From IMG/VR virus record IMGVR_UViG_3300021426_000066: a stretch of DNA of 64,000 nucleotides. One strand, given 5' to 3'. A program made the translations under genes and the position numbers. The stretch comes from a virus. Taxonomy: Duplodnaviria; Caudoviricetes. This document shows positions 8,639 to 40,300 of this stretch, piece after piece. The first letter of the stretch is position 1; each line of letters begins with the position of its first letter. The notes beneath the pieces are model-generated. The model searched no databases and was not told where the DNA came from. It saw nothing but the letters and a program-made list of their open reading frames with translations.

Positions 8639-8806
8639 ATGTCTAAGAAACATCCAGGCAGAGATACTGATTATGCGAAATGGATTAGCCGTATGGCTAA
8701 ACTTGAGAACTCACTTAAAGCTGAACGTGAAAGACTTAAAAAGACTGAAAAGAAAGACGGAACTCATAAAGGTCATAAAAGAGCAGAAAGAGAGGGCGAA
8801 GAATAA
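8639..8806 (+). CDS. Small basic hypothetical protein (55 aa, not in track)
   Basis: AAGGAG RBS, MSKKHPGRDTDY...EGEE*, TAATG overlap with next gene. Confidence 0.55.
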   Translation: MSKKHPGRDTDYAKWISRMAKLENSLKAERERLKKTEKKDGTHKGHKRAEREGEE

Positions 8807-9894
8807 TGTATTGGGATTCGGCAGCGACAACCCCAGTAAAACTGGAAGTATTGGATGCCATGTTACCTTATTTTACTGATAAGTTTTTTAATCCCTCATC
8901 AATTTATGAACCCGCCAGAGAAGTAAGGAGAGATATAGAAAAGGCCAGAGCAATTGTGGCTGAATCAATTAACGCAGATCCCGAAGAAATCTATTTTACT
9001 TCGGGCGGTAGTGAAGCTAATAATTGGGCGATCATGTGTTGTGGGTGGCATCCTCCTATTATCTCTACAATTGAGCATCATTCATTGATGAAAGCCGCTC
9101 AGTATTATTCACCAATTGAAGTCGATCCGTATGGAAGAATTGTTATTACAGATTTTGAACAGAAGGTGCATGAGATTCCTAAGACAGAGCCTGTATCAAT
9201 TCAGATGGTGAATAATGAAATCGGAACTATACAGGATATTAAACGACTGGTAGAGATTGCCCACGAGAAAAAGCTGTTATTTCACACAGATGCAGTACAG
9301 GCTTATGGGAAAATTCCTATTGACGTTAAGGTATTAGACGTAGATATGTTATCAGCCTCTGGTCATAAGATTGGCGCTCCCAAAGGTATTGGATTTTTAT
9401 ATGTTAAAAAGGGTGTGAAGATTCAGCCTTGGATTGAGGGGAGTCAGGAACGAGGACTGAGAGGTGGGACCGAGAATGTACCTTATATCATGGGATTAGC
9501 TAAAGCAGTTGAGCTGATAGATTATAACGAACAAATTAAATTTCAAGAGTTATATGATTATGCTGTAAATCAAGCTTTAGCGTTTGCTAACATCAATGGA
9601 TATTCACTGAAAAGAATATACAATATTCTCAGTCTTACCATAAAAGCAAAGATTGACGGCAAGCAGCTTATTGGTTTGCTTCATGATAGGGGTCAGTATG
9701 TATCCGCAGGATCGGCATGTAATTCATACAGTAATGAACCAAGCCATGTATTAAAAGCAATCGGCCTTACTGATAGCGAAGCGACTAGAACAATTAGAAT
9801 CAGTTTCTTTGAAGGCATGACCAAAGAAGATATAGACACATTATTTAAAGATATACGAGAGTGTATTGAAACTCTGAAGCTGCTTGGAGGATGA
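8806..9894 (+). CDS. iscS: Cysteine desulfurase (IscS/NifS, PLP-dependent)
   Basis: DSAATT, FTSGGSEANN, VNNEIG, HTDAVQA, SGHKIGAPKG (PLP Lys), RGGTEN, SAGSAC (catalytic Cys). Confidence 0.93.
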   Translation: MYWDSAATTPVKLEVLDAMLPYFTDKFFNPSSIYEPAREVRRDIEKARAIVAESINADPEEIYFTSGGSEANNWAIMCCGWHPPIISTIEHHSLMKAAQYYSPIEVDPYGRIVITDFEQKVHEIPKTEPVSIQMVNNEIGTIQDIKRLVEIAHEKKLLFHTDAVQAYGKIPIDVKVLDVDMLSASGHKIGAPKGIGFLYVKKGVKIQPWIEGSQERGLRGGTENVPYIMGLAKAVELIDYNEQIKFQELYDYAVNQALAFANINGYSLKRIYNILSLTIKAKIDGKQLIGLLHDRGQYVSAGSACNSYSNEPSHVLKAIGLTDSEATRTIRISFFEGMTKEDIDTLFKDIRECIETLKLLGG

Positions 9895-11139: not shown

Positions 11140-11625
11140 ATGAAATATACAATTAGAGAAGGAGTTTGGGAAACCAACTCCTCCTCTGTCCATTCAATAT
11201 CTATCAGTAATAAAGGTTTAAGAAAGTGCAGGCTGAAGCCCAGAGAAGACGGCTATATTCATGTGCAGGCTAGATACTTTGGAAGAGAATTAAACTATTA
11301 TCCCAACCAGAAAGACAAGCTTACATATCTCCTGGTCTGTGTTGCGTATTGCTGTGGGTGTGCATACAGATCTGCTGATTATGAACGCTTTTATGATGAC
11401 TACAGATTTAAATACATCGAAGAAGCTGTAAGGCACTACTATGAAGAAACGACTGGCAGACATGATTGTCTGGGGATTAGAGTGGACAATCTTGAAAAAG
11501 CAGAATTGGACCATCAGTCTATACCAGAATATGGGGATCTGCCTTTTGTCAATGTATGGGATGAGGTGTCCATTCAGAATTTTATTTTCAATAGTTACAT
11601 TTCTTTAAAGACAGATGGAGATTAA
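11140..11625 (+). CDS. ETNSSS-motif protein 1 (unknown function)
   Basis: MKYTIREGVWETNSSSVHSI; YFGR, DHQS and DGD motifs; AAGGAG RBS. Confidence 0.8.
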   Translation: MKYTIREGVWETNSSSVHSISISNKGLRKCRLKPREDGYIHVQARYFGRELNYYPNQKDKLTYLLVCVAYCCGCAYRSADYERFYDDYRFKYIEEAVRHYYEETTGRHDCLGIRVDNLEKAELDHQSIPEYGDLPFVNVWDEVSIQNFIFNSYISLKTDGD

Positions 11626-11634
11626 GGAGTAAAT

Positions 11635-12333
11635 ATGAAATATACTATTCGACAGGGAGTGTGGGAAACAAATTCATCTAGTATGCACTCAATTGCTGTT
11701 ATGAAAAGCGATGAAGAATATACCAGAACAGAAATTCTGAACGAAGTGTATATCAGAAAAGGCGTACTGGATTTTTGGGACGATGAAAAATTATACTTCG
11801 GAAGATATCCATTCCGCATCTTAACTACTTTTCTTGAGAAACTGCAATATGCTGCCGCTAGTATGGGTGATTATTGGAACGGTTCATACGAAGAAGTTTC
11901 TAATAGAATTGAAGCATTGGTTGGTCTAGTTCATGAAATACTCCCTGAAGTAAAAGAAATTAAATGGCCCAAACATTATGAAAATGCATATAGGGATCAA
12001 GAGGGCAATAAACTCAGTTATGATGATTTGAAATATGATTATTATTTCAGCGAGGCCCATGATCATTGTATGTATTATTATGAGCGAGATGGTCAAAAAT
12101 ATCCCGCTGTTAAGGACGATGATTATGAATATGAACTGAATTATTATGGTCAGGTTGACCATCAAAGTGCAGGATTACTTAGTAGCTTTTTGAAAAAGGA
12201 AGGTATTGGTTTAAAAGATTTCCTTCTTAAGAAAAAGTATATCGTGATTATTGATGGTGACGAGTATTTAGAATGGAACAAATATAAAAAAGCCAATATT
12301 ATTAATATAGATGCGATTGACCACGAATATTGA
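11635..12333 (+). CDS. ETNSSS-motif protein 2 (unknown function)
   Basis: MKYTIRQGVWETNSSSMHSI; YFGR, DHQS and DGD motifs; AAGGAG RBS. Confidence 0.8.
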   Translation: MKYTIRQGVWETNSSSMHSIAVMKSDEEYTRTEILNEVYIRKGVLDFWDDEKLYFGRYPFRILTTFLEKLQYAAASMGDYWNGSYEEVSNRIEALVGLVHEILPEVKEIKWPKHYENAYRDQEGNKLSYDDLKYDYYFSEAHDHCMYYYERDGQKYPAVKDDDYEYELNYYGQVDHQSAGLLSSFLKKEGIGLKDFLLKKKYIVIIDGDEYLEWNKYKKANIINIDAIDHEY

Positions 12334-12341
12334 GGATAAGA

Positions 12342-13277
12342 ATGAGAACTAAGATAGCAGAATATCAGAATGGTAATGTTAATGTAATTCGCTTTGATGA
12401 TGGTACGGTCATTAGATATTCAGAGGACGATGAATTTCGATTTGATTTTCCCGAAAATCTGGATGTTAAGATCAGCGACCGTTGTGATATAGGATGTCTC
12501 GTGTGCCACGAAGGAAGTACGAAAGATGGTAAAATAGCTGAAGATTTATTAAAACAGCCTTGGATTGATACTTTAAAGCCGTATACAGAGATTGCTCTGG
12601 GTGGAGGAAACGTGTTTGAGCATCCAGATTTTTTCTCTCTTCTTGAAAGGTTACGGACTCAGAAGGTATTCGCTAACATTACTGTGAACCAGATTCATTT
12701 CATGGAAAATCTGAATCTTATTCGTTGGCTTGTAAGGAAGAAATTAATTTGGGGAATTGGTGTGTCTCTTGCCTACTATGATGAAAAGTTATTTGAAGCA
12801 ATGAAAGAGTTTCCCAATGCTGTTCTTCATGTGATTGCAGGAATATTAACACAAGAAGATTTATGCAGACTCATGACACATCATGATCTAAAGATTTTGT
12901 TCCTTGGATATAAGAGACTTCGTAGAGGGCAGGAATATTACGACCACTATAATAAGAGTGTTGATAAACATTTAAAAGAGACCGAAGATATGTTACCCCT
13001 GATCCTCGAAGCATTTAAAGTGGTATCCTTTGACTGTCTGGCAATCGAACAGCTTCATATTAAGGATCATCTTCCTTCAAATGTATGGGAACATTTTTAT
13101 CAAGGCGATGATGGCACAATGACATTCTATATTGATGCTGTGAATGAACAATTTGCAACAAGCTCTACCACTCCTATTGAGCGTAGATGGGATTTTACGG
13201 ATTGCTCTAACGCTATCACTGAAATGTTTGATATTATTAAATATGTAGGAGACAAAACTCCAGATTTAGAGGTTTAA
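12342..13277 (+). CDS. Radical SAM protein
   Basis: CDIGCLVCHE (CxxxCxxC), IALGGGN, NITVN; no SPASM Cys array; ATG 12342 after GAGGA. Confidence 0.88.
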   Translation: MRTKIAEYQNGNVNVIRFDDGTVIRYSEDDEFRFDFPENLDVKISDRCDIGCLVCHEGSTKDGKIAEDLLKQPWIDTLKPYTEIALGGGNVFEHPDFFSLLERLRTQKVFANITVNQIHFMENLNLIRWLVRKKLIWGIGVSLAYYDEKLFEAMKEFPNAVLHVIAGILTQEDLCRLMTHHDLKILFLGYKRLRRGQEYYDHYNKSVDKHLKETEDMLPLILEAFKVVSFDCLAIEQLHIKDHLPSNVWEHFYQGDDGTMTFYIDAVNEQFATSSTTPIERRWDFTDCSNAITEMFDIIKYVGDKTPDLEV

Positions 13278-16200
13278 ATGAGTTACTTTGGAATACACAA
13301 TCATACGGACGCAGGTAGCAATCTGCGTCTGCGTGATTCAACCAATAAGGTTAATGATTTGATACAGTATGTTCATGATATTGGAATGAAAGGTCTGGCT
13401 ATTACAGATCACGAATCAATAGCTGCACATCTGAAAGCGTTAAAGTATTATGAGCAACATATGAATGAGGATGAATGGAACGGTTTTAAGCTTGCGTTAG
13501 GTAATGAGATATATCTTTGCACAAGTTCAACAACGGCAGAAAATGCCAAAGATAACATTTATCCTCATTTTATTTTAATTGCTTTAGATGCAGAAGGGCA
13601 TAAAGGGATTAGAGAGTTAAGTACGAAAGCCTGGGTCAATAATTCTTTTATGTCTGTGATGTATAGAGTTCCTACTTATTATGAAGATTTATTTGATATG
13701 TTGCAAACATATAGGGGACATGTAATTGGTTCAAGTGCCTGTTTGGGTGGAAGTGTGCCAAGAGCAATTTTAAAATATAAAGATAATCCTAATAGCAATG
13801 ATTGGGATGGTATTAAATATTGGATTAATACCATGGACAACATTTTTGGTCGAGGATTCTTCTTTTTAGAACTACAGCCGTCTGATTCAGAAGAACAGAT
13901 TTATGTAAATGAAAAGTTAGTGCAGTTGTCTAAAGAAACCAATGTACCATATATTATTAGTACTGATGCTCATTATCTTACCAAAGAAGATAGAAACGTT
14001 CACAAAGCTTTTCTTAACTCACAAGACGGAGACAGAGAAGTTGACGAGTTCTATGCAACAACTTACGTTATGACTCCAGAGGAAATTCATTCCTATATGG
14101 ATAAGTATTTGGGGTATGAAACGGTTCAGTTGGGGCTGAATAATACGAATCTGATTTATGATAAGGTTCAATATTACAAACTGACAAAAGACTTGGAAAT
14201 CCCTTATATTCCGCTTGATACAACAGAACCAGATGAAACCCTTTATAAGAAGTATAGAGATAGTATTCCGTTGTTCAAGAATCTGTGGGAATCAGATTTT
14301 GACGGTGACCGTCATATGCTGAGAGAACTGCTTAAAGCAATTGAATCTCATGACAATTATCAGACGGAACTTGGATACTTTAAAGTTAATGAATGTCTGG
14401 ATTATCTCATTAAATCCTCTGAAGTTAATAAAGTTCATTGGTCCGCGTATTTGATGCAGGAAAGAGATTATATCAATATTGCATGGAATACAGGTAGCTT
14501 GGTTGGAGCAGGTCGTGGATCTGGCGTTGGATTTTGTTTATTGTATTTACTTGGAATCACTCAAATTGATCCGCTGAAAGAAAAAACACAGACATTTCCA
14601 TGGCGCTTCCTGAACCCTTATCGTCAGAGTGTACTTGATATTGATACCGACATTGAGGGTTCAAAAAGAGATATTGTCATTCAGGCATTAAAAGATACTT
14701 ATGGCGTAGACAGAGTATCAAAAGTTTTGACTTATCAGACAGAACAGAGTAGAAGTGCTATTCTTACTGCTGCTCGTGGACTTGGGATTGATAATGATAC
14801 CGCTTCGTATATTGCTTCATTGGTCGTGTTTGATAGAGGCATGGCCCGTTCCTTGTCTACCATGTATTATGGTAATGAAGAGTATAAACCCTCTGCTGAA
14901 TTTGTACGAGAGATGAATGCTCACCCAGATTTATGGGAAACAGCTAGAAAGATCGAAGGATTAATTTGCGGCTGCGGGCAGCATGCGGGAGGAGTCATCA
15001 TATGTGACAAGCCGTTGACCGAATCAACTGGATTAATGAGAACCAAGTCTGGTGATATTGTTACACAATATGATCTCCACTTATTAGAGGATGTTTCGCT
15101 CATAAAAATCGATTTGTTGGCAATTGATGCACTTGAAAAGATGCACGCCGAACTGGATCTGCTTCTTGAGTATGGCGAAATTGAGTGGCAAGGTTCGTTA
15201 CGAGATACATACGAAAAGTACGTTGGTGTGTATACTTTGGAGCGTGATGCGGAAGATATGTGGCAAATGTTATGGGAACATAAGGTCTTGTCATTCTTTC
15301 AGATGGAAAAAGAATCTGGCAAAAAAGCTATTGCTCTCGCAAAACCGCATTCTGTTGATGACCTTGCAACCCTTAATTCTGTCATTCGCCTGATGGCTCA
15401 GGAAAAAGGAGCAGAACAGCCTCTACAGAAATACGCTCGTTTTAAGAATGATATTAATGAGTGGTATAAAGAGATGACTGCGTATGGGTTGACACAGGAA
15501 GAGCAAGATATTCTCAAAGAAATAATTGGAACTTCGTATGGAATATGTGAGGCGCAGGAATATCTCGTACTACTTGTAAACCATCCTAAAATTGGTGGAT
15601 TTGACATAGCATGGGGAGACAAACTTAGGAAGGCCGTTGCAAAAAAGCAAGCTAGAGATTTTGATAAGCTGGAAAAAGAGTTCTTTACCAACGCTAAAGA
15701 AAAAAGTTTAAGTCAAAATCTGACCAATTATGTTTGGAATGTATTAATTATGACTCAGCGAGGCTACGGTTTTAATAAGGCTCATACTCTGTCGTATTCC
15801 ATAGTCGGATTGCAGGAACTCAACCTTGCCTACAAATATAATATCTTATACTGGAACACAGCCAATCTCATTGTAGACTCTGGGGCATATAATGAATCTG
15901 CAAATGACTCTACCAATTACGGTAAGATGGGATCAGCTATTGCTAACATTAAAAAAGAGGGAGTACATATTGCATTCCCACTTATCAACTCTGCTGAGTT
16001 CAGTTTTAAGCCAGATTTAGATAACAATCAAATTATTTTTGGCTTAAAAGGAATCAATGGAATTAATACAGAATTGTCGCAAACTATTATTAATATGCGT
16101 CCCTTCAAATCAATGGATGATTTTGCAGAGAGATTGCTTGATACCAAAATTGTAAAGCCTAATCAGATGATTAAACTTATGAAGGCTGGCTGCTTTACAG

Positions 16201-17189
16201 AACTTGATTGTCCAGATAGAACAAAAACGATGAGATGGTATCTGGATAAATACAAGATCGAAAAAGTAGATAAGTTGACACTGGCTCAATTAGGCAGGAT
16301 GAAAGAATGGCATATCATTCCTCAGTCGTTGCAGAAATCAGTTCAAATGCTCTCTCTTAAATCCTATATTCTGGATGACGAGGGTTTATATGAGATATTC
16401 AACGATCCAAATAAAAAACCTCTAAAGAGAGGATATCACGATAGATATTATATTCTGGATGATCAGGCTCAGAATTACTATTATGACTTCTTTTCTGATG
16501 ATTGTATCGTGAAAGTGGTTAATGAACATTACGTTGTGTCAGAAAAGAAGATTATCAAAGAAGCTGATAAACTACTTGAACCATTGAGAAAATGGTTCTC
16601 TAGCCAAGAAGCCATTGATAAATATAATCAGGCGCTGATAGACGAAGCCTGGGATACATATGCTGCTGGCACACCCGCTAAATGGTCTATGGAAGCACTT
16701 TGCTATTATGATTCTGAACATGAGCTGGAACATGTAGATGAGAAGCAATATGGCATTGTTAATTTCAATAAGTTACCAGAAGAACCAAATGTGTATGACT
16801 GGTACACTAGAAAAATTAACGATGAGTGGAAACAAATGCCTAAATATCAGATTGTAAGAATTGCGGGGACCGTTCTTCATGCTGATAATCCTCATCATAC
16901 GGTTACGCTTCTTACTAAATATGGTCCCGTCCTGTGTAAACTGAATAAAGGACATTATGCTTTTTATAGTAAACGTATTTCTGTAATTGGTGATGATGGT
17001 AAGAAAACAGTACTGGAAGATTCATGGCTGAAACGTGGCAATCTGCTTCTGGTTTCTGGCATTCGTAGAGACGATCAATTCTGGCCCATGATTTACAATG
17101 ACACTATATATAAACACACAATTAATTTTATTAAGGAAGTAAATGCAGATGGAACACTTAATCTGCAAGTTGAAAGGACGAAAATATAA
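13278..17189 (+). CDS. dnaE: DNA polymerase III alpha subunit (phage DnaE)
   Basis: PHP domain HNHT...AITDHE, GRGSG, LDIDTD, HAGG, KIDLL, YGFNKAH. Confidence 0.95.
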   Translation: MSYFGIHNHTDAGSNLRLRDSTNKVNDLIQYVHDIGMKGLAITDHESIAAHLKALKYYEQHMNEDEWNGFKLALGNEIYLCTSSTTAENAKDNIYPHFILIALDAEGHKGIRELSTKAWVNNSFMSVMYRVPTYYEDLFDMLQTYRGHVIGSSACLGGSVPRAILKYKDNPNSNDWDGIKYWINTMDNIFGRGFFFLELQPSDSEEQIYVNEKLVQLSKETNVPYIISTDAHYLTKEDRNVHKAFLNSQDGDREVDEFYATTYVMTPEEIHSYMDKYLGYETVQLGLNNTNLIYDKVQYYKLTKDLEIPYIPLDTTEPDETLYKKYRDSIPLFKNLWESDFDGDRHMLRELLKAIESHDNYQTELGYFKVNECLDYLIKSSEVNKVHWSAYLMQERDYINIAWNTGSLVGAGRGSGVGFCLLYLLGITQIDPLKEKTQTFPWRFLNPYRQSVLDIDTDIEGSKRDIVIQALKDTYGVDRVSKVLTYQTEQSRSAILTAARGLGIDNDTASYIASLVVFDRGMARSLSTMYYGNEEYKPSAEFVREMNAHPDLWETARKIEGLICGCGQHAGGVIICDKPLTESTGLMRTKSGDIVTQYDLHLLEDVSLIKIDLLAIDALEKMHAELDLLLEYGEIEWQGSLRDTYEKYVGVYTLERDAEDMWQMLWEHKVLSFFQMEKESGKKAIALAKPHSVDDLATLNSVIRLMAQEKGAEQPLQKYARFKNDINEWYKEMTAYGLTQEEQDILKEIIGTSYGICEAQEYLVLLVNHPKIGGFDIAWGDKLRKAVAKKQARDFDKLEKEFFTNAKEKSLSQNLTNYVWNVLIMTQRGYGFNKAHTLSYSIVGLQELNLAYKYNILYWNTANLIVDSGAYNESANDSTNYGKMGSAIANIKKEGVHIAFPLINSAEFSFKPDLDNNQIIFGLKGINGINTELSQTIINMRPFKSMDDFAERLLDTKIVKPNQMIKLMKAGCFTELDCPDRTKTMRWYLDKYKIEKVDKLTLAQLGRMKEWHIIPQSLQKSVQMLSLKSYILDDEGLYEIFNDPNKKPLKRGYHDRYYILDDQAQNYYYDFFSDDCIVKVVNEHYVVSEKKIIKEADKLLEPLRKWFSSQEAIDKYNQALIDEAWDTYAAGTPAKWSMEALCYYDSEHELEHVDEKQYGIVNFNKLPEEPNVYDWYTRKINDEWKQMPKYQIVRIAGTVLHADNPHHTVTLLTKYGPVLCKLNKGHYAFYSKRISVIGDDGKKTVLEDSWLKRGNLLLVSGIRRDDQFWPMIYNDTIYKHTINFIKEVNADGTLNLQVERTKI

Positions 17190-20242: not shown

Positions 20243-20551
20243 ATGCTTGAATACGATGCTGATTTTTCTGTGAATTTACATTTTGAGATCGATGAGGAAC
20301 AGGCATTCAAACAGGGTGGCATTAGTTTAGCAGATGTTAAAAAGAATATTGAAGAATTACCTGAATGGATCATGGGTGCGTTAAATGAATTTATTGAGTT
20401 CGGTGAAAACGATAGCGTTACAGTAATGCCATATGATTATGAGGTGGTTTTGAATGGGAAAGTAATCGATCTGGATGATATTGAAGACGAAGAAAACAAT
20501 GAAGAAGACGAAGACCTTGATAACTCTGAAACAGTGGAGACGCATAAATGA
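20243..20551 (+). CDS. Highly acidic hypothetical protein
   Basis: GGAGG RBS; D/E-rich throughout. Confidence 0.6.
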   Translation: MLEYDADFSVNLHFEIDEEQAFKQGGISLADVKKNIEELPEWIMGALNEFIEFGENDSVTVMPYDYEVVLNGKVIDLDDIEDEENNEEDEDLDNSETVETHK

Positions 20552-21216
20552 TTAAAGTAGAAAATATAGATGTATGGGGATTTGAACATGCAATCAGAGG
20601 CGCACGAAATCCTATGAACAGTTGGGATAAGAGTGATAGTAGACATGCAAATAAATTAGATGCTCAGACTATACAAGATATGAGAGAAGGCATGTTTATT
20701 CTTGGCGAAAACGATTTGAATCTAATGAAAAAATTATATAAAGCAGGAACAGAACATAGGAAATATCTCCGTCAGATTTTCGTCAGCATGGATATCACAG
20801 CACCTCTATACTGGTGGAAAGAAGCGGACACGTACAAGGTCGGTACAGTTGCTAATTCCTGTTCTACGATGCACAAGATTGCCGCTAAAGAATTTGAATT
20901 AGATGATTTCAGCCATGAGCATTTATTTGGAGAAGTTGATAAAAGATATGCAAATCAGCCGATAGGTGCATTGCAAATAATTATTGAGTGTTTGAATCAC
21001 TGGCGAAAAAATTATTTGGAAACTAAGGATAAGAATGACTGGTGGCAGATGATTCAGCTACTTCCATCTTCTTATAATCAGAGAAGAACTATTACCATGA
21101 ACTATGAAAATGTGGTAAGCATGATTAAGCAGAGAACTAATCACCGATTAGATGAATGGAATGACTTTGTGGAAATCTTGAAAGGACTTCCGTATATTAA
21201 AGAAATTATGGAGTAA
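20548..21216 (+). CDS. ThyX-like flavin-dependent thymidylate synthase (divergent phage type)
   Basis: AIRGARNP, HRKYLRQI, APLYWWKE.DTY, STMH, QLLPSSYNQ, R.NHRL.EW. Confidence 0.65.
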   Translation: MIKVENIDVWGFEHAIRGARNPMNSWDKSDSRHANKLDAQTIQDMREGMFILGENDLNLMKKLYKAGTEHRKYLRQIFVSMDITAPLYWWKEADTYKVGTVANSCSTMHKIAAKEFELDDFSHEHLFGEVDKRYANQPIGALQIIIECLNHWRKNYLETKDKNDWWQMIQLLPSSYNQRRTITMNYENVVSMIKQRTNHRLDEWNDFVEILKGLPYIKEIME

Positions 21217-21234
21217 AATGGGAGACGAAGAAAA

Positions 21235-21345
21235 ATGAATTGGTTATTACTATTTGCTTTCGGAGTGGGGATGTTCTCATTAGGAGCAATGGTTGGCATT
21301 GTTCTTTATGAAGATGATGATAATTGGAGGCCAAGAGGATGGTAG
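21235..21345 (+). CDS. 36-aa single-pass membrane peptide (not in track)
   Basis: MNWLLLFAFGVGMFSLGAMVGIVLYEDDDNWRPRGW*; GGAG upstream. Confidence 0.5.
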   Translation: MNWLLLFAFGVGMFSLGAMVGIVLYEDDDNWRPRGW

Positions 21346-21647
21346 ATAAGCTAAAATATCATGAAGAGTTATGTAGTATGCTTCATGAAATCTATGCAAA
21401 GAAAAATCATGATTATGGAGATTCATTTGGAAAATCCTTTAAAGAGTGGGGAATGACCGCAGCCATGGTACGAATGTCTGATAAATGGAATCGGCTTAAG
21501 ACATTAGCCATGTTGCCAGATGACGAGAAGAAAGTGATGGATGAAAACATTACAGATACAATGTTTGATTTGGCTAATTATCTTTTAATGACTTGTATGG
21601 AGTTAAAGATTCGCCGTGAGGGACTGACACAAGATGAAGATATTTAA
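21339..21647 (+). CDS. DUF1599 / nucleotide-modification-associated domain 1 protein
   Basis: KKNHDYGDSF, RMSDKWNRL, DTMFDLANY. Confidence 0.8.
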   Translation: MVDKLKYHEELCSMLHEIYAKKNHDYGDSFGKSFKEWGMTAAMVRMSDKWNRLKTLAMLPDDEKKVMDENITDTMFDLANYLLMTCMELKIRREGLTQDEDI

Positions 21648-22038
21648 AGTTTATCTCGCTGGTGCATGTAAGTACGAACCAGATGAAGGAGAAGGTTGGA
21701 GAAATACTGTTACGGAAGAATGGAGTGATTTAGGTATCTCTTTCATTAATCCACTTCATTATTTCAGATACTCTGAAAGTTGGCATCAGAGCCATAAACA
21801 GGTTAAACAGTTCTATTTCTCAAAGATTAAAACTTGTGATGTTGTCTTAGTTAATCTGAATAATAGTGATTCTTCCTGTGGTACTTGCCAAGAAGTACAA
21901 TATGCTATTGATCAGGGAATTCCAGTTATTGGATTTGGACATGAAAACGTATACAACTGGCTAGAAGTAGACTGTCAATGCATCTTTGATAAAGCGGAAG
22001 ATGCTATGGAATATATCTATAATTATTATGTTGTTTAA
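21634..22038 (+). CDS. Nucleoside 2-deoxyribosyltransferase-like protein
   Basis: VYLAG, FINP, CDVVLV, S.GT..EVQYA. Confidence 0.75.
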   Translation: MKIFKVYLAGACKYEPDEGEGWRNTVTEEWSDLGISFINPLHYFRYSESWHQSHKQVKQFYFSKIKTCDVVLVNLNNSDSSCGTCQEVQYAIDQGIPVIGFGHENVYNWLEVDCQCIFDKAEDAMEYIYNYYVV

Positions 22039-24514: not shown

Positions 24515-26440
24515 ATGGACATTGAACTGAAACTTACTAAAGACTTTGAAAGGTGTTTGGAAGATTTAAAGAAAAAATATGGTGAAGATTTTGAATATAT
24601 TAATGGTCTTCATCCTAGCCAGTTAGATTTTTCAGAGTTTATAGATAATTTTGTGGATAAGGGTACTCTTGCTGATAAGAGCATTGACCCGAATGCTAAC
24701 GCTAGAAACAAAGATATCCGCAGTTTTATGACAGAGAAGGGGAAAAGTGAGGATAAACTTTTTGGGTTAAATAAAATCTTTTCGACAATCAAAAAGCAAT
24801 GGGGGCTGCGTACTGCTAAACAGTGGCTGGAGCAGGAATTTAGCAGAGGATTCTATTTGAATGATAGTACTACCGCAAGTTATTTTCCTTATTGCTGGGC
24901 AAACGATTTTACTCGACTTGCTACAGAGGGACTGTTCTTTTTAAATAGCTATAATAATCAACCTCCAAAGCATTTAACCACGTACATTGATGATGTTATT
25001 GAATTCGTTTCATTCCTTTCTAATAGACAGTCTGGAGCTGTTGGTATGCCTAATGTCCTTATTTGGGGATGGTGGTTCTGGAAAAAAGATGTTGAATCTG
25101 GTGATTATATCAGAGATCCCAAGTACTACTGGAGACAACAGTGTCAGAAATTAATTTTTAGACTTAATCAGCCGTTTTTGAGAATTGATCAGAGTGCTTT
25201 TACAAATGTTTCGATCTTTGACAGGCCATATCTTGAATCATTGTTTGGTGGAATTGTTTTCCCTGATGGAACAATGGCTATTGATCATATTGAAGATCTG
25301 ATTGAAGCACAGAAAGAATTTATGCGTGTAGTCGATGAGACTAGAAGTATACAGATGTTTACTTATCCTGTGTTGACTTATAGCTTACTCTTCCAGGATG
25401 GTAAATTTGTAGATGAAGATTTCGCTAGATGGTGCAGTAACCATAATATCAAGTGGTCCGATTCTAACTTTTTTGTTAGTGACAACGTAGGTGTTCTCAG
25501 TAATTGTTGTAGACTGTTAAGTGATACATCAAAGCTTGATGCCTTTATTAATAGTATCGGTGGTACGGCTTTATCCGTTGGTTCTTGTCGTGTAAGTACA
25601 ATTAATCTGGTTAGAATTGCTTATGAGAGCGAGTTAGATAAAAAGAAATATCTTCGCATTCTGAAACAGAGAGTGCTTCTTGATTGCAAAGCCCTTTATT
25701 CTATGAGACATATTCTCAAGAGGAACATTGAAAAAGGGTTACTTCCAAACTATCAGGATGGCGCAGTTGAACTTGATAAGCAGTTCTGTACCATTGGCGG
25801 CATTGGAATGTATGAAGTAATGGATATGTTTGGACTAATTGATACGGATGAATTTGGATGTAAATCATATTCTAATGAAGCTGTTGATTTTGCAACCAAG
25901 ATTCTGGACGTGATGAATGAAGTAAAAGATAGTTTTGAGTGTGATTTTACTTTTAACATTGAAATGATCCCCGCAGAAAATTGTGCTGGTGTTATTTGTC
26001 AAGCTGATAATCTCCTTTATGAGCAGAATAAATATTTCATTTATTCTAATCAGTGGATTCCTCTTATGGAAAAATGCACAATTCAGGAAAAATGTAGGCT
26101 TGGATCACTGTTTGATGCGAAATGCGGTGGTGGATGCATTGCTCATATTGACATTGAAAACAGGTTCCCTAATGAAGAAACCGCGTGGGATATGCTGAAT
26201 TACGTTGCTTCTCATGGGGTAATCTACTTTGCATTCACAACCAAGATCTCTGTTTGCGAGGATGGGCATGCATTTATTAGTGAGAAGATCTGTCCTGTTT
26301 GTGATAAACCAATTGCTGATACATATAGCCGTGTAGTTGGATTTTACACTCCTGTATCTGGCTATCAAAAAATTCGCAGAAAAGAGTTCGACAAGCGTAA
26401 GTGGATGGATGTTTTAACCAAGGACGGGATCATGCAATGA
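24515..26440 (+). CDS. nrdD: Anaerobic (class III) ribonucleotide reductase
   Basis: SNCCRL, IPAE, CPVC, glycyl-radical loop SRVVGF; no recognisable ATP cone. Confidence 0.93.
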   Translation: MDIELKLTKDFERCLEDLKKKYGEDFEYINGLHPSQLDFSEFIDNFVDKGTLADKSIDPNANARNKDIRSFMTEKGKSEDKLFGLNKIFSTIKKQWGLRTAKQWLEQEFSRGFYLNDSTTASYFPYCWANDFTRLATEGLFFLNSYNNQPPKHLTTYIDDVIEFVSFLSNRQSGAVGMPNVLIWGWWFWKKDVESGDYIRDPKYYWRQQCQKLIFRLNQPFLRIDQSAFTNVSIFDRPYLESLFGGIVFPDGTMAIDHIEDLIEAQKEFMRVVDETRSIQMFTYPVLTYSLLFQDGKFVDEDFARWCSNHNIKWSDSNFFVSDNVGVLSNCCRLLSDTSKLDAFINSIGGTALSVGSCRVSTINLVRIAYESELDKKKYLRILKQRVLLDCKALYSMRHILKRNIEKGLLPNYQDGAVELDKQFCTIGGIGMYEVMDMFGLIDTDEFGCKSYSNEAVDFATKILDVMNEVKDSFECDFTFNIEMIPAENCAGVICQADNLLYEQNKYFIYSNQWIPLMEKCTIQEKCRLGSLFDAKCGGGCIAHIDIENRFPNEETAWDMLNYVASHGVIYFAFTTKISVCEDGHAFISEKICPVCDKPIADTYSRVVGFYTPVSGYQKIRRKEFDKRKWMDVLTKDGIMQ

Positions 26441-26922
26441 TGATTACTCTTAAAGGTATTATTGATGAGGACTTTGTAAATTATAAAGTCCCGTCAATGA
26501 CTCTGATGTTTCCGTACTGTGACTTTAAATGTGATAAAGAATATGGGCAATCTGTATGTCAGAATTCTCAACTGTTTTCTGGACCAGAGATAAAAATAGA
26601 TACGGTAACACTTTGTCAGAGATATATAGATAATCCTATAACTCATGCAGTGGTTATCCAGGGGTTGGAACCATTTGACAGTTTTCCAGAGTTACATGTA
26701 TTTATTATGACATTACGACATGTGTTTTGTTGTGATGATCCTATTGTAATTTATACGGGATATAACAAAAGTGAAATTATTTTTAAGGTGTCTGAATTAC
26801 AAAAAGATAAGAACATCATTATTAAATATGGTCGTTATATTCCTGAACAGAAGCCTCATTATGATGAAGTGTTAGGCGTGAAACTAGCATCAGACAATCA
26901 GTATGCTGAAAGGATTAGTTAG
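26437..26922 (+). CDS. nrdG: NrdG activase (radical SAM)
   Basis: CDFKC...CQN, GLEPF, IYTGY, LASDNQ. Confidence 0.88.
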   Translation: MMITLKGIIDEDFVNYKVPSMTLMFPYCDFKCDKEYGQSVCQNSQLFSGPEIKIDTVTLCQRYIDNPITHAVVIQGLEPFDSFPELHVFIMTLRHVFCCDDPIVIYTGYNKSEIIFKVSELQKDKNIIIKYGRYIPEQKPHYDEVLGVKLASDNQYAERIS

Positions 26923-29522: not shown

Positions 29523-30731
29523 TTGGCAAATTTGCAAGAAGCTGTAGAAAATGGTATAATATCTAATACAGTTATGGCAAAACTGCAAAATGATGTAGAA
29601 ATGGCTAAAAAGAAGAAATACTTAGACATGCATCAAAACAAAATTTATCAGGGTAAAGACGGACGTTGGTATACCAGAATGCCCAAAGCTGGAGGTGGTA
29701 CAAAACAGACAGCATTTCGTTCTCTGGAAGATGCACAAAAAGCGATTATTTCATTTTATTCTATAGTAGATAGTAACCCTACTATTAAAGAGTTATTTGA
29801 TGAATGTCAGCTAGAGCGTCTGGAACGAAACAAAATAGTATCTGGAACATATCAAAGAAACAAACTGATTTTTAATCAATTCTATTCTGAATTTGGGAAC
29901 ACACGTATTAAAGATGTGACTGTACGTGAGATAGCAAACTTTATTGAAGATACTGTGTATAAGCATAATTTAACCGCAGCGGGCTTCAAAAAAGTTAAGG
30001 GCGTTATGATTTCTGTGCTGAAATACGCTGTGAAGAAAGAGTATATTGATTATACTTTTGACGCGGTAAAGCCTCATCTGGATATTTCACAGAGTGACTT
30101 ATCTGAAGATAAGATGACAGATGAATCAGAGGTATATAGTGAAGATGAGACAATCAGATTACGGAATTATCTCTATAACAGCACAATGATTCATGACCTT
30201 GCCCTGTTGCTTTTCTTACTGACAGGATTAAGAAATGGTGAATTAACTGCTCTTAAATGGGAAGACTACAATGGTGAAAGCTTATTCATTCACAGGATGG
30301 AACGAACTGAGTATGACTTGAATGGTGAAAAACATTTTATCATTTTGGATGAACATACGAAAACCCAGAAGGGTACGAGAGAAGTTCCACTTGTAAAACC
30401 TGCAATTGATCTGCTTGAGAGAATGCGTAAGATTAACCCAGATGGAGTCTATATCTTTGAAGATGAAGAGCATAGAAGAATCACATCAGAAAATCTGAGA
30501 AAAAGATTGGTTACTGTATGTAAGAAAATCGGAATCAGATATCGTTCTCCCCATAGAATCAGAAAAACATTTATCACAATCCTTCTTGACGGTGGAATGT
30601 CACCCACTCTTGTGAGTGATATTGTTGGTCATAAAAATCCCACTACTACATTACAGTACTATAAATATAGAAGAGCGTCTAACCAGACAATTCTTGAAAA
30701 ATACGATCCTGTATTTACAGAGATTGGCTAA
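29523..30731 (+). CDS. int: Tyrosine integrase
   Basis: TGLRNGEL (R), HTKT (K), HRIRKT (HxxR), VGH, YY; possible ATT start at 29502. Confidence 0.93.
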   Translation: MANLQEAVENGIISNTVMAKLQNDVEMAKKKKYLDMHQNKIYQGKDGRWYTRMPKAGGGTKQTAFRSLEDAQKAIISFYSIVDSNPTIKELFDECQLERLERNKIVSGTYQRNKLIFNQFYSEFGNTRIKDVTVREIANFIEDTVYKHNLTAAGFKKVKGVMISVLKYAVKKEYIDYTFDAVKPHLDISQSDLSEDKMTDESEVYSEDETIRLRNYLYNSTMIHDLALLLFLLTGLRNGELTALKWEDYNGESLFIHRMERTEYDLNGEKHFIILDEHTKTQKGTREVPLVKPAIDLLERMRKINPDGVYIFEDEEHRRITSENLRKRLVTVCKKIGIRYRSPHRIRKTFITILLDGGMSPTLVSDIVGHKNPTTTLQYYKYRRASNQTILEKYDPVFTEIG

Positions 30732-34362: not shown

Positions 34363-37300
34363 TTAAGCCATAGCTTCAATTCTTTGCTTTAGTTGCTCAT
34401 TCTCTTGCGAGAGTTGCTCGACTTGCTTGATAAGCTTTTGAATTTGCTTTTCATGGTCTTGTTCAACAGCAAGCATAGCGGGAACAATATGACGAATATT
34501 CCAGTTTTCGACTCGATTATTATCATATATGGCTGCGATAGGATAATATTGTGCTACATCTTCAGCTATTAAACCAGGTACGTCTAACCCTTCGTAGCAG
34601 TCCCCCTCCACCAGGTATCCTTCATTATATTTAAAAGATACAACTGGAATATCTAATACTTTTTGATAGTCCGTCAGAGGCTGAATGTCATGCTTATAGC
34701 GTTTTGATGAATTCGCTGCTGCCGTCACTCTTCCAGAGGTACTAATAAATAAATTACCTGCTCCACCAGAAGTGGTACTAGATGGGGCAATCGTCGGAAG
34801 ATAAAGATATCCGTTACCATTCTGTGTATAAATAACCCATTTTCCAAGCGTGTTAGAATATAATCCAAAGTTCCCCGTAGACGAATCAGAAGCATACAAG
34901 CTTCCTTCATGATGAGAGTTCTTGACTTTAAAATATACACCCGTACCTGCTGAGGTGGAAATTACGGCATTTCCCGCAGAAACAGTAAGCCATGTAGTAT
35001 TACTGGGCTGTAGATATATACTTCCTCTAGATGCAATAGATACCGTATTTCCTTCAAGATGCGTTGAGCCAATTTGATCTTTAAATGATCCATATCCAAA
35101 TAAAATTTCATTATTTGCATTTACACCACAGAGTATTCTGTTTGTATTATCGTTAAATTTTGAATATATATACTTGGCATTAGTATCTATTGCTATATGA
35201 CCGCCAGTATATAATTCATCAGATACCTTTAACCGACCACTGGCTGTCTCTTTGATATATGAAGTGACAGACGCAGATTTATTATAATGAAAGCTGATTG
35301 CACCACCACTGGTAGCAGAACTCGCGAGATGTACTTCTCCATTAGTTGCTAACCAACATCCAAAATGATCTGTGTCATTATATGCTGTGCGGCCTCCCGT
35401 ACCAAGCCCACCAGTAACATATGTATTGGCTGTGACATAAAGGGCATGATTAACTGAAACATCATTATATAATTTTAAAGTGCCTGAAGCAGATTCATGG
35501 ATATATGAAGTTGCAGTTGTTGCTTGGTTGTAATAGAAATATATATAAGATCCACCATTGGCTGGCCCAACCAAAAATGCATTGCCTGCATTGTTTAGCC
35601 AAACTCCTGTTTTACCATCAGCGGCTTGGGTTTTACCATTTGTTCCAACACCAGTTGTGACAGTAACTCTGCCACCTACGTCAAGATTACCAGTTTCTAT
35701 AGTATAATTCCCATTATTAAACGTAACACCATTTAATTTAGTCTTATCACTTGCAGACATTATACCTGCGACAGATGCCGTAGCTTCTGGCATAACAAAT
35801 TCCCTAATTGCTCCATTATGATACCAATAGGTAGGAAGAGTGTTGGAGAATTCAAATTGTTCTGTAGTTCTAGCATAGCCAATCTGTTTGTATATGAATC
35901 CATCAGCGCTAGTGGGCAGCTCTTGCGTCCACCATGTATCTGCTAAATAAAAAAGACCTGTTGCAATATCATAAGTGCCTTTAATATACAAAGGTTGGTA
36001 TGGTGTTAATGTTGCTCCACAGTTACTACTGTATCTAAAGTTGAGAGCGATTCCATGAGAAGTAACAATATTATCACCATTCTGTGCGCCTGATGCATAA
36101 TTAGAGCTAGAAGCAAGATAATAAATCTTACCTAATTGGAAACCTGTCGTGTTTCTAGTTTTAGTCGTATCAGTACCATGATCCGTTGTGAAGCTCTGCC
36201 AGTTACCATCCGCATCCTGCATGACTAAACTATACTGCTTCATACCATTAGTACCTGCTGTGAGTCTGGTATAGTAATCTCTGACGGTATAAGTGTCGTT
36301 ATAGTCGCCTGTCTCTTGAAGCCCTTGATTAGCACCATCAAAACTCGTTAAACCAGCATAGTTTGTAGAACCAGTCCCAGGTACATCGGCATACTTCAAA
36401 GCATCTTCAAACATCGTTACAGTACAGTTTTCTGCCTCAAGGATGTCTACTCGAACAGTACGAGGATATGAAGATGAGACAGAATTTGCACTATATAGGA
36501 AACTAATACCAAGTAAGTGACCATAAGCTGATGCACCTACTTCGGTTGCTCTATACAAGTTATGATAGTAGAACGTCCTATAACTCGTACTTAAATGAGA
36601 GTTAAAGATGCTGTACGCAACATAACTATTTTCATAACCGTATATTTCAACATCAGCATAGCCATGATAATAGTTTTGATTAGGAACATCTACTTTAATT
36701 CTGTATTTGACTTTCCATACGCCATGGTATTGATCAGGTTTTACTGAAGCAAAATAAAAAGACGTACTCTCCATATTATTTGCTGACCCATACAAACCAG
36801 CATAAGTCTTTGTTCCACCACCAATAGGAGAGATATCACTATAATCTAAAACAATGTTATCGGTTAATGCCTTGCCATTGATTTGTCTGGTATTGGGAAC
36901 AGGAGTGTAGCCAAGTGCCGTTGTTACATTGGATGAAGTGAGTTCGCCTCTAATAGTGGCAGATGATTTATTCTCAACATTGCTTAAGCCAATATCAGTT
37001 TTGGTAACATTGTGAGGGTTACCAGAGGTTAACTGAGAGTGGTCATATGCTATCTTGCCACGATCTCCACGATATGCTGAGGAGGAATTTTCACCCAGAG
37101 CCAATGAAGCAGAGATTTCTACATAAGCCGATCCAGACCAACGATAAGTTTTATTGGTAGATAAGTCTACATATATCTTACTTGATTCTCCTGTGAGTTG
37201 ATTTGTATGAGCAGACTCTTTGTACATCTTATTGTTATAGTAATACGCTTCAATTACATCATCAACATAACTGGGCAATTGAGAGGAGAGGATAAGACCA

Positions 37301-40300
37301 TTAGAATCAAGTTCAGCAACCTGAGATGCTACTTTAAGCGTACCATCTGATTCCATGTAGATAGGTTGAGTGACTGAACCTAATGCAGTTTGTGGTGCGG
37401 CATGGGCAACTTGCTGCCAAGCGTTCCAAGCGGTTTGAGACGAAGTACGATAATACATGGTGTTTTTAGTTGTACTGGCATTGTAATGCATATAAATCTG
37501 CGCTGCATAATCAGGGGTAGTGTTTCCTGACGGTTTACGATAAGCCATTGTAAATACTTCACCATAGCCATAAGTGGTTGGACCATTAGTCAAAGAACCA
37601 GTAATATTAGTAACACTTGTATCATAAATTGTGTTTAAATCAGATGGTGATGATTTTAACGGAACATTGCCAGAGGCTGTTCCTGTAACGTTACCTGTAA
37701 CATTGCCAGTCAAAGCCCCATAAAAAGTCGAGGCTTCAACTTCTGTTGCTACACCGTTTCCGTTACAAAATTTATATCTATTAATTTTCGCATCCGATGT
37801 ACCATCGTGCCATTTATAGCCCACATAAAGTGTTGTTGCACTGGATGGCTTAGCTGCAAAACGTATTTCATTTTGAGCAACGATACTTAAATAATTAGCA
37901 ATAGTTGCAGTTGATGCGCTACTAGCTGTAACCGCATTACCATTCAAAGTTACGCTCCCGTTAGAATCAGCATATACAATCCACTTATTATGTTTCCTAG
38001 AATAAATACCACCGTAACCTGATGAACCAACAATAAATGCTACCTGATTAGGGTTGGTAGATTGAGTGTTATTTACTTCAACACCACATTCACCTGCTCT
38101 GGTAATATAGAGACTGTTGGAAAGAGGAACTGATGAACCCGCTGTGAGGGGTAAATCAAGTGAAGCATGACCTGTCAACGAACCTGAAAATGTAGTGGCA
38201 TGAATGCCTCCAGCATTATCTAAATAAATATTTGTATCAAAAGCAGTAGAACTCGATCCTCGCTGTCCAAAATATAAGAGACCGCCTTTGTCTCGAATCT
38301 CCCAATCATTCAGCGAATCAGTGAGGGATCCTCTTTGAAAGATAATTGCAGGAGAATTTCCTGAAGAGACAGATAAGGTTAAGTCACCTGTAAGAGTTCC
38401 ACCAGATAAAGGTAATGCATAATTCATATAATTACCAGCATGTAAAACTGCTTGTGTATCCCAATAAAAACTACCATCACCACTAAAAGTAAGTCTCTTA
38501 TAAGTATCTCCACTTTTTACTCTAAATTCAGCTTTAGTGTTGGTATGACTAGTTCCCGGTATATAATAATGCACATACACCGTTCCATCTGTGTCACTAT
38601 ATAAATTATGGTAATAGTGAGCGGGAAATCTAGACCATCTAACATCCTGATTAAATAATAGATTGCCAGACAGTGTTCCACCAGTAAGAGGGAGAGCATA
38701 TGAAGAGTAATTAACAGAATCTAATAATCGTCTCCATGACTCCCATTCTGTAGTTACTCCCATTCTAGTAAAAATACCAGTATCATTAAACGCTATTTCA
38801 TGCGCTTTCCCTCCTGAAGAATCGGCCCATCCTCGTAAACCCACAATATAAGAATATGTATCATTGGATGGATTATTTACCGTCGCTTTATTTTTTAAGC
38901 CAACGAATACAATTTTATTTTTATAATCGTTCGGAGCAGTTGCTACTGAGCGATTATCGCCTAAAGTAATTAATGCTTTGGCCTCATCTGCTGTCGTTGC
39001 TTTGGTCGCAGATCCAACACTTACGTTAGTCACATTAATCCATTTTTGTGTGCCACCATTGGCAAAACCATCAATTGTAAGAAGATAAGAAGTTGAAGTT
39101 GCTTCGGGTAAGGCAGTGCTATTAGACCATTTGATTGACCCCGTCATAGTACCGCCTGTGAGGGGCAAATAATTTGCACCATTTGCTGGCGTATATCCCA
39201 GAGCAGTAGTCACATTGCTACTCGTTAATTCACCACGGATGGTTGCTGAGGATTTGTTCTCAACATTACCGAGGCCAAGACCTGCTTTAGTGACATTTAT
39301 TGTTTTACCCTCAGTTCCATCATAAGAATTAAGCGTTGTAGAATTAAGCTGAACTGTTAATGTGGGTTTGGGGTTGTAGTTGGTTTTATAAGGAACTTGG
39401 ATGCAGGTTACGCCGTTGTCGGGTTCAGGGATAACAGAAGCTGCATCCTTAGCTGTAAACTGAAATTCAAATAATGATAAATCAATATTAGTTAATTTGC
39501 CTAAAGATTCATTTATAACATCCGCACTAACAGTGGGATAATAGATAAATGAAGATGCCCTTAAAGCAATAGCCACATATTCCGTGGAATTCTTTGTATA
39601 TTTAAATAAATAAACATTTGGATGCCAACCACCATTATCTACTACTCCTTGCATACAAAGTTCGTCACTATAGATATAAAAGACTATGCTTAAATCAATA
39701 GGACATGAGCTATTATATGCGAAACCTGTAATATGGACTATGGGCATTAGATTTGACGACACAAACTTAATACCAGTATATAAAATAATTTCATCCACCT
39801 GAGAGCTAGAATATGTACTGGCAACATTAATTCCTTGGTTTTTTATTTGTAAATAATTGTTGGATTTTAATGCCGTAGCAGTTAATAATCCAGTACTTGG
39901 ATTAGCATATATAGAATTATTTCTCAATGCAATATTAGTGCCACTTGCTCCAGTATTTGTATTTGCAAAATAACTCATTAAAAGTGGCAAATCGTAATTT
40001 TGTGAATATAATGTCTGCGTTACTTTGGTATCAGTAAACACGGCATTGCTAGGTACGTCAGCCTCAACCGTATGACCATTTACTACATCAGCACTACCAG
40101 AATAAAGCCTTACTTGTCCTTTCCTGTATGCAAAAATAGGATGGACAGCTTGGAACAAGAAGTAATTTGCTCCAGAGGATTGATTTCCTAACCGACCAAG
40201 AGTTATATAAGCTTTACCATCATCCGAAGTAGGAAGAGTATCTGTTATGATGGATGGATCTACTGTAGCTGTGTTACCAGAGATGGTCACAACTAAATAG

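Follow-up and report, generated by a model that had tools for sequence, protein, structure and literature searches.

Phage proteins with a shared N-terminal tag and the divergent radical SAM-like enzyme encoded beside them

The tag genes and their radical SAM partner

The window analysed here, the whole 64,000-nucleotide stretch of IMG/VR virus record IMGVR_UViG_3300021426_000066, is a contig of an uncultured phage. Within a co-directional block of replication and nucleotide-metabolism genes it encodes two adjacent proteins, g1 and g2, that open with almost the same short sequence, here called the tag. They are followed by a divergent enzyme of the radical S-adenosylmethionine (radical SAM) type (Table 1). 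Across phage genomes the pairing of tag genes with this radical SAM gene is obligatory and directional, and the partners are sometimes fused into one protein. We refer to the tag proteins as clients of the enzyme.

As a preliminary description of the locus had pointed out, g1 and g2 start nearly identically and otherwise have little in common. Among their first 20 codons, 18 specify the same residue, and 10 of these 18 differ synonymously (the serine codons read TCC-TCC-TCT and TCA-TCT-AGT in the two tags), which shows that selection acts on the tag peptide. Nearly all of the BLASTP signal between the two proteins (E 4e-11) is N-terminal; further along they share the motifs FGR, K..Y, DHQS and a terminal DGD. 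To judge from their sequences, g1 and g2 are old paralogues. Among 27 homologues of g1, R6, N13, S14, S15, H18, K60, Y63, H125, Q126 and D161 are invariant. Residues ~61-75 of g1 (window 11320-11365) form a cysteine-rich helix with four cysteines in eight residues; it is also present in the closest relatives and absent from distant members of the short class.

A logo built from 153 distinct tag-bearing proteins at approximately 100 loci gives the consensus M-K-x-x-I-R-x-G-V-F-E-T-N-S-S-S-x-H-S. R6, E11, S14, S15 and H18 are 100% conserved (147-153 sequences, all client classes), N13, S16 and T12 reach 99%, 97% and 93% respectively, and an aromatic residue stands at position 10 throughout. At position 8, the only glycine position of the tag, 61% of sequences have G, 21% N and 10% S, and the tag has no invariant glycine. 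The initiator methionine lies 10 residues ahead of the invariant glutamate in 149/163 cases. The aromatic residue at position 10 is concordant within loci (0.83, against a shuffled expectation of 0.60; 0/2000 shuffles). We do not read this concordance as co-adaptation, as the all-W state arises about twice on the radical SAM tree, mixed loci exist and the independent events are too few.

The third gene of the module belongs to phrog_16999 (E 2.9e-38). In an alignment of 26 diverse homologues, no cysteines besides those of its C52-x3-C56-x2-C59 motif are invariant, so the enzyme has no SPASM or twitch cluster, the absence of SPASM having been noted already in the preliminary description. F or Y precedes the third cysteine in most homologues, V in the present window. 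At a candidate SAM-binding GGE-type motif, the sequence is E87-x-A-x-G-G-G-N in the window and N-L-N or N-G-N in relatives, and a conserved segment of ~40 residues (Y12, N14, G15, G25 and T26) precedes the cluster. Weak NCBIfam matches (E 1.8e-4 to 0.1) are to the N-terminal halves or radical SAM cores of SPASM, twitch and MoaA families, the best being protein or peptide maturases and MoaA; profile matches in the PDB are confined to the cluster region.

The three genes are tightly packed, in the spacing that had been reported. The g2 stop codon (TGA, 12331-12333) is followed 8 nt later by the ATG at 12342, which GAGGA precedes, and the TAA of the radical SAM gene (13275-13277) directly abuts the dnaE ATG. 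A program-made list of open reading frames (ORFs) opens the radical SAM gene at TTG 12330; we favour ATG 12342 as the most likely start because homologues begin at the equivalent position.

Table 1. Positions of the module and of its context genes in the window (RBS, ribosome-binding site)
Feature	Position	Strand	Basis
g1, short tag protein, 161 amino acids, body class 0, ending at a D-x-D motif	11140..11625	+	ORF with RBS
N-terminal tag of g1, residues 1-19	11140..11196	+	logo of 153 tag sequences
g2, long tag protein, 232 amino acids, body class 0	11635..12333	+	ORF with RBS
N-terminal tag of g2, residues 1-19	11635..11691	+	tag common to g1
Divergent radical SAM-like enzyme, 311 amino acids from ATG	12342..13277	+	phrog_16999; co-occurs with tag genes
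CxxxCxxC cluster-binding motif, C52/C56/C59 counted from TTG	12483..12506	+	only invariant cysteines in radical SAM alignment
dnaE-type polymerase, context, outside the module	13278..17189	+	homologous gene at locus L001 has PHP/DNA_pol3_alpha
NifS-like cysteine desulfurase, context	8806..9894	+	TIGR03402 9e-103 and DndA model 1e-73, both below cut-off

Pairing, client classes and genomic surroundings

The association between tag genes and the radical SAM gene was counted from both sides. Starting from the tag in IMG/VR, the radical SAM gene lies downstream on the same strand at 76/80 loci. Of the other four, three are truncated where the contig stops and one truly lacks the gene, giving 76/77 loci with enough flank. 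This exception, L053 (IMGVR_UViG_3300045988_153093), is the only full-flank tag locus with no radical SAM gene within 10 kb, and may reflect loss or relocation. Starting from the radical SAM gene, one to four tag genes were found at 80/80 loci. All 153 tag ORFs recognised by a strict pattern (79 loci) lie upstream of the radical SAM gene on its own strand, the median distance to its start being 840 nt; the two tag ORFs that the pattern missed at L155 are also upstream. On bacterial genome contigs (Lachnospiraceae, other Bacillota and Bacteroidales), which are probably prophages or binned phage contigs, 7/8 tag loci with a usable downstream flank have the radical SAM gene, with up to six tag genes before a single enzyme. 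Across 87 loci the tag family is present in 87/87 and the radical SAM family in 81/87, and the next most common family in only 23/87.

Fusions and cultured phages extend the pairing. A search for longer proteins found one fusion, P0180 (575 amino acids), which joins a long tag protein to the radical SAM enzyme and occurs on two contigs assembled independently from two runs. Salmonella phage Arash encodes a second tag protein/radical SAM fusion, gp146 (OQ632216.1; L087 5431-6861), annotated as a 'methyltransferase': its residues 4-134 match the profile of the short tag proteins (hhalign 92%, E 6e-7) and residues 169-451 that of the radical SAM enzyme (99.3%, E 2e-20). We attach little weight to P0132, a fusion of long and short tag proteins on one 1.4-kb contig that could reflect a lost stop codon. 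Separate genes make up the pair in Ma-LMM01 (gp130 and gp128), Rhodothermus phage RM378 (p108 and p106), Thermus phage phiYS40 (162 and 161) and Vibrio phage D479, and Lak megaphages have the radical SAM gene followed by four tag genes. Carriers of the module include phages of gut Lachnospiraceae and Prevotella, cyanophages, thermophages and a Salmonella phage. Just upstream of gp130/gp128, Ma-LMM01 encodes gp131 (L005 3058-3858; 266 amino acids), annotated as 'histidyl tRNA synthetase'.

In these distant systems (Ma-LMM01, Lak, RM378, phiYS40, D479 and Arash), (T/S)NSSS is retained in the gene or region beside the radical SAM enzyme. E11, H18 and the aromatic residue can differ among them, with E11 and H18 replaced in Arash, RM378, phiYS40 and D479. 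Because (T/S)NSSS is kept in every system examined, this pattern would mark it as the chemically essential core of the tag.

The clients are acidic proteins of 95-320 amino acids, and clustering of their bodies with the tag removed separates two main classes. Class 0, which includes g1 and g2, has an enzyme-like body of 145-320 amino acids; class 1 has a small acidic body of 95-146 amino acids that ends in F-G-x-Y-G-Y-D. The arrangement met most frequently has a class-0 gene, a class-1 gene and then the radical SAM gene; both tag genes of the present module are of class 0, and class 1 is absent from it. Comparison at the sequence level identifies the tag as the only part kept in all client classes. 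Beyond it, Y72 (93%), K69 (83%), D209 (78%) and D175 (71%) are widely kept, and D175, H176 and D209 are missing from some paralogues. Together with the replacement of E11 and H18 in distant phages, this weakens the idea, raised in the preliminary description, that Glu, His and Asp residues of the clients build a metal site. Class-0 bodies keep the polar set K69, Y72, D175-H176 and D207/D209, and the matured clients are therefore probably enzymes.

The tag-protein family is large. A word-indexed search returned 429 matches for g2, and an exhaustive profile search 2608 cluster representatives at E<=1e-3 (640 at E<=1e-10), which stand for clusters at 50% identity and set a lower bound for the family. 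The expectation that no characterised family would match was borne out. The tag proteins have no match in Pfam or NCBIfam, nor does any of the three proteins of the module in PADLOC (2023 library, E<=1); among the matches listed no relative of g2 or g1 carries a Pfam domain, and the few named by their source are 'hypothetical protein'. Phrog_28997, to which PHROGs assigns no function, matches only the N-terminal 20-60 residues (E 5.6e-4 for g1, 8.9e-3 for g2). PDB sequence-profile searches with the client proteins gave no match. A tblastn search of g2 against 50,697 phage records likewise found nothing, because similarity outside the tag is low; the tag genes of cultured phages were recovered by reading for the motif at loci found through the radical SAM gene.

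AlphaFold models built from family alignments are confident for both g2 (predicted local distance difference test, pLDDT, 92; predicted template modelling score 0.88) and g1 (pLDDT 88). The tag, as the N-terminal 15-20 residues, is the least confident part of both monomer models, with a pLDDT of 48-54 in g1. The g2 model carries an inserted beta-hairpin domain (residues ~112-168); its zinc-ribbon-like resemblance to TFIIE and LeuRS is a weak beta-hairpin likeness, which we do not consider meaningful. Neither model matched a solved fold: against the PDB, Foldseek gave E-values of 0.2 and 1.0 at best, and VIA-align, run against 48,161 chains, reached Z scores no higher than 3.3 (g2) and 3.2 (g1), where models with no clear Foldseek match typically reach 7-8. 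Structural neighbours of g2 in BFVD and the ESM Atlas were all unnamed viral proteins, and ESM Atlas feature searches gave unnamed viral clusters only. Several motif likenesses were considered and dropped as grounds for family membership, having neither fold nor profile support: alkaline-phosphatase-type N-S-x3-H and D-H, Toprim E/DxD, 2H HxS and pyruvoyl Ser-Ser cleavage sites.

In the window, the genes upstream of g1 encode an AAA_24 ATPase, a DnaB-type helicase, a PD-(D/E)XK nuclease and the NifS-like cysteine desulfurase, which may supply sulfur for Fe-S enzymes of the phage. From g1 on, the order is g1, g2, radical SAM enzyme, DnaE and a RecD2-type helicase. Further genes of the block encode DUF1599, a nucleoside deoxyribosyltransferase-like protein, an NAD-dependent ligase, NrdD, a phosphoesterase, a dUTPase and an integrase. 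NrdD (24515-26922; PF13597, 8e-83) is followed by an overlapping ORF of 173 amino acids that has no Pfam match and carries cysteines in an unusual C-x3-C-x8-C-x-N arrangement. This is probably a divergent NrdG-type activase and a second radical SAM enzyme of the phage, distinct from that of the module. Positions 20548-22038 hold a protein of 222 amino acids with no Pfam match (20548-21216), DUF1599 (21324-21647), also named 'nucleotide modification associated domain 1', and the nucleoside 2-deoxyribosyltransferase-like protein (21634-22038). This candidate nucleotide-modification cluster hints that the phage modifies its own nucleotides. Three tRNA genes lie at 264-1178, of types Asn-GTT, Ile-TAT and Leu-TAA; the first, with 96 nt, is unusually long. 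A tyrosine integrase (29523-30731) lies between the replication block (+) and the lysis/structural block (-, from ~31077), which includes an ORF of 3064 amino acids (34363-43557). The phage is probably temperate. A promoter and terminator scan gave a result at chance level.

Near the module in other phages we found DNA methylases, a CCA-adding enzyme, NAD synthase, a PurZ-like adenylosuccinate synthetase homologue and polynucleotide kinase-phosphatase/RNA ligase. None is consistently linked to it; as a group, the replication, nucleotide-modification, tRNA-repair, methylase and NAD-salvage genes around the module suggest nucleic-acid metabolism or counter-defence. NifS is nearby in 7/87 loci. 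A protein of ~500 amino acids adjoins the module at L155 (3462-4943) and L004 (9681-11198), the L004 gene carrying DUF2828/DUF7788, and is not consistently linked either.

A proposed role for the radical SAM enzyme and its rivals

Near-absolute reciprocal co-occurrence and natural fusions make the tag proteins and the radical SAM enzyme a real functional unit, as had been supposed from the window alone. We propose, with about even confidence for and against, that the enzyme modifies the exposed tag loop (NSSS) and so matures the client proteins. The module is self-contained and has two parts, a single divergent radical SAM enzyme and between one and six clients encoded with it that share a tag at their start. 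The N-terminal tag would be an exposed arm, reaching with its (T/S)NSSS loop into the active site, where a 5'-deoxyadenosyl radical would abstract hydrogen from an invariant serine or asparagine. The permanent modification then installed, which would mature the clients, might be an oxidised or dehydrated serine, an epimer or a cross-link.

Several observations favour this reading of the tag as a shared substrate or handle for one radical SAM enzyme. Taken together they suit it better than an ordinary active-site loop: the tag is kept perfectly in every client class, including the small acidic one; it is under purifying selection in ancient paralogues, poorly packed in the monomer models, and always found with one radical SAM enzyme. 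The weak best matches of the enzyme, to cores of protein or peptide maturases and MoaA, also speak for the proposal. Maturation of a folded protein effector by radical SAM enzymes has a precedent in the action of HxsB/HxsC on HxsA (PMC13128918). Other points weigh against the proposal. The match to the Pfam model Radical_SAM (PF04055, residues 47-152) is sub-threshold, scoring 17.2 bits (E 0.006) where 29.5 are required. The enzyme has no auxiliary cluster, unlike known Ser/Cys-oxidising and most peptide-modifying radical SAM enzymes. The clients are folded proteins of 95-320 amino acids with conserved polar residues of their own, so that the tag could be a catalytic loop and not a substrate. 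Finally, it is unusual for a substrate to be fused to its own enzyme.

A multi-subunit enzyme is the most serious rival. The tag proteins would here be catalytic or specificity subunits that assemble with the radical SAM protein, possibly exchanging N-terminal arms, and act with it on a nucleotide, DNA, tRNA or a metabolite; the tag would then be a loop for catalysis or metal binding, or a strand for docking, and not a substrate. This rival earns its standing from the class-0 bodies, whose conserved K, Y, D-H and D-x-D(E) sit where the residues of an alpha/beta active site typically lie, and from the double-body proteins P0217 and P0245. These carry the tag only in their first half and keep the GRxPF, DH and DGDEY motifs only in the second, a division that fits complementation in trans. 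The long+short and client+radical SAM fusions, the conservation of distinct client classes across very distant phages and the nucleic-acid enzymes among the neighbours also agree with it. Many paralogues, however, have no D-H or D-x-D residues and yet a perfect tag, and the class-1 clients are small and acidic (95-146 amino acids); no set of enzyme-like motifs was found in their sequences, for which neither a model nor an alignment was made. E11 and H18, the best metal-ligand candidates of the tag, are those replaced in distant systems that keep NSSS. Of the structural checks suggested in the preliminary description, the fold search gave the outcome reported above; the predicted complex of g1, g2 and the radical SAM enzyme scored below a control in which g2 was replaced, and counts neither way. 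Overall, we regard a multi-subunit enzyme as possible but rather unlikely.

Two further explanations fare worse. The tag loop might store a radical like that of glycyl-radical enzymes, with the radical SAM protein as an activase that leaves a stable protein radical for the clients to use in catalysis. One enzyme of activase size, free of auxiliary clusters and serving several clients with a conserved loop, would suit such a scheme, which is nonetheless improbable because the tag has no invariant glycine; its spacing also misfits the RVxG[FYW] finger motif. PflA/NrdG-type activase models in NCBIfam give no match to the enzyme at E<=1, and the hosts of phages with the module include aerobes and an oxygenic cyanobacterium. 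Serine or asparagine C-alpha radicals are not known to act as stable cofactors, which also counts against radical storage. The preliminary description had stressed the coupling to dnaE, and the module could accordingly be a DnaE-specific replication accessory, either a polymerase cofactor or a replication-coupled base modifier. The abutting stop and start codons, the surrounding replication module and a gene order kept in the nearest relatives (L001, L007-L011) speak for this. Its distribution largely refutes it: dnaE lies within 10 kb of the module in only 17/87 loci, so the abutment belongs to this clade only, and Ma-LMM01, Arash, RM378 and Lak carry the module among different local neighbours, Ma-LMM01 replicating with a family-A Pol I (gp178). 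We consider this the least probable of the readings.

Within the proposal that the radical SAM enzyme matures its clients, a more specific role can be put forward tentatively. The enzyme may create a protein-derived catalytic residue, or another covalent change, in (T/S)NSSS. This would switch on an undescribed enzyme family, one with no solved-fold match, that thousands of phage lineages might use against nucleic-acid-based or other defences of the host or for nucleic-acid modification.

Significance and comparison with known systems

New in this analysis are a census taken in both directions, a division of the client bodies into two classes, the (T/S)NSSS core common to all systems examined, the lack of a solved fold matching two clients, and the examples from cultured phages, including the Arash fusion. 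The scale is considerable, with at least 2608 cluster representatives that have no Pfam, NCBIfam or PADLOC model tied to an uncharacterised radical SAM clade. Knowing the function would reveal either a novel reaction of a radical SAM enzyme on proteins or a novel radical enzyme of several subunits, together with the role of a fold that has no solved structure, and would probably uncover a further strategy of phages, new to science, in nucleic-acid metabolism or counter-defence. These ideas are directly testable, since variants occur in cultured phages of tractable or well-studied hosts (Arash gp146, Ma-LMM01 gp128/gp130, phiYS40 161/162 and RM378 p106/p108). Arash gp146 offers a tractable cultured model for the module.

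In its logic the module resembles anSME/AtsB and the sulfatases, where one radical SAM enzyme likewise serves several paralogous folded clients through a short invariant serine motif near the N-terminus, and where the modified serine becomes the catalytic residue of the clients. However, anSME has a SPASM domain with two auxiliary clusters, whereas the enzyme of the module has only three cluster cysteines. The anSME client motif is (C/S)-x-(P/A)-x-R, whereas (T/S)NSSS has no Pro or Arg after the serines. We detected no sequence relationship to this system, and the models of the small clients match no alkaline-phosphatase-fold protein. Glycyl-radical activases, with PflB, GrcA and NrdD as clients, share with the module a small radical SAM enzyme that has no SPASM domain and a conserved exposed loop on separate clients, 'spare-part' proteins among them. 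These pairs need an invariant glycine in the RVxG[FYW] finger, whereas the tag has none and the enzyme shows no similarity to activases. Moreover, the window encodes its own NrdD and a separate small NrdG-like gene, apart from the radical SAM gene of the module.

The maturases of ribosomally synthesised and post-translationally modified peptides (RiPPs), such as those of streptide (SuiB/SuiA), sactipeptides and ranthipeptides, are comparable in their arrangement of one to six tandem genes with a conserved N-terminal segment, a variable remainder and one radical SAM enzyme, and the weak best matches of the radical SAM core fall in the RiPP-type SPASM/twitch group. RiPP precursors, however, are short leader/core peptides, whereas the clients have 95-320 amino acids and two of them (g1 and g2) are confidently modelled as folded proteins. 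In the module, unlike in RiPP systems, the conserved segment itself bears the invariant polar residues. The enzyme has no SPASM/twitch domain, no RiPP recognition element was detected, and the module has no recurrent protease or exporter gene among its neighbours. PHROG 16999 ('Fe-S oxidoreductase') and 28997 are clustering labels that describe no function, partner or motif. In the literature on the tag motif, on phage radical SAM enzymes in counter-defence or hypermodification, and on Ma-LMM01 and Arash, we found no description of the motif or the pairing.

HXS (PMC13128918) shares with the module the radical SAM-dependent maturation of a folded effector in phage-bacterium conflict and a motif containing histidine and serine. 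That system is bacterial and periplasmic, with two radical SAM enzymes and HxS repeats, whereas the module is phage-encoded, with one radical SAM enzyme, a single N-terminal tag and no HxS repeats; the HxsC model reaches only E 0.14 against the enzyme (11 bits, cut-off 267.9). The radical SAM maturation of the HxsA defence effector is nonetheless the nearest published concept to the module described here.

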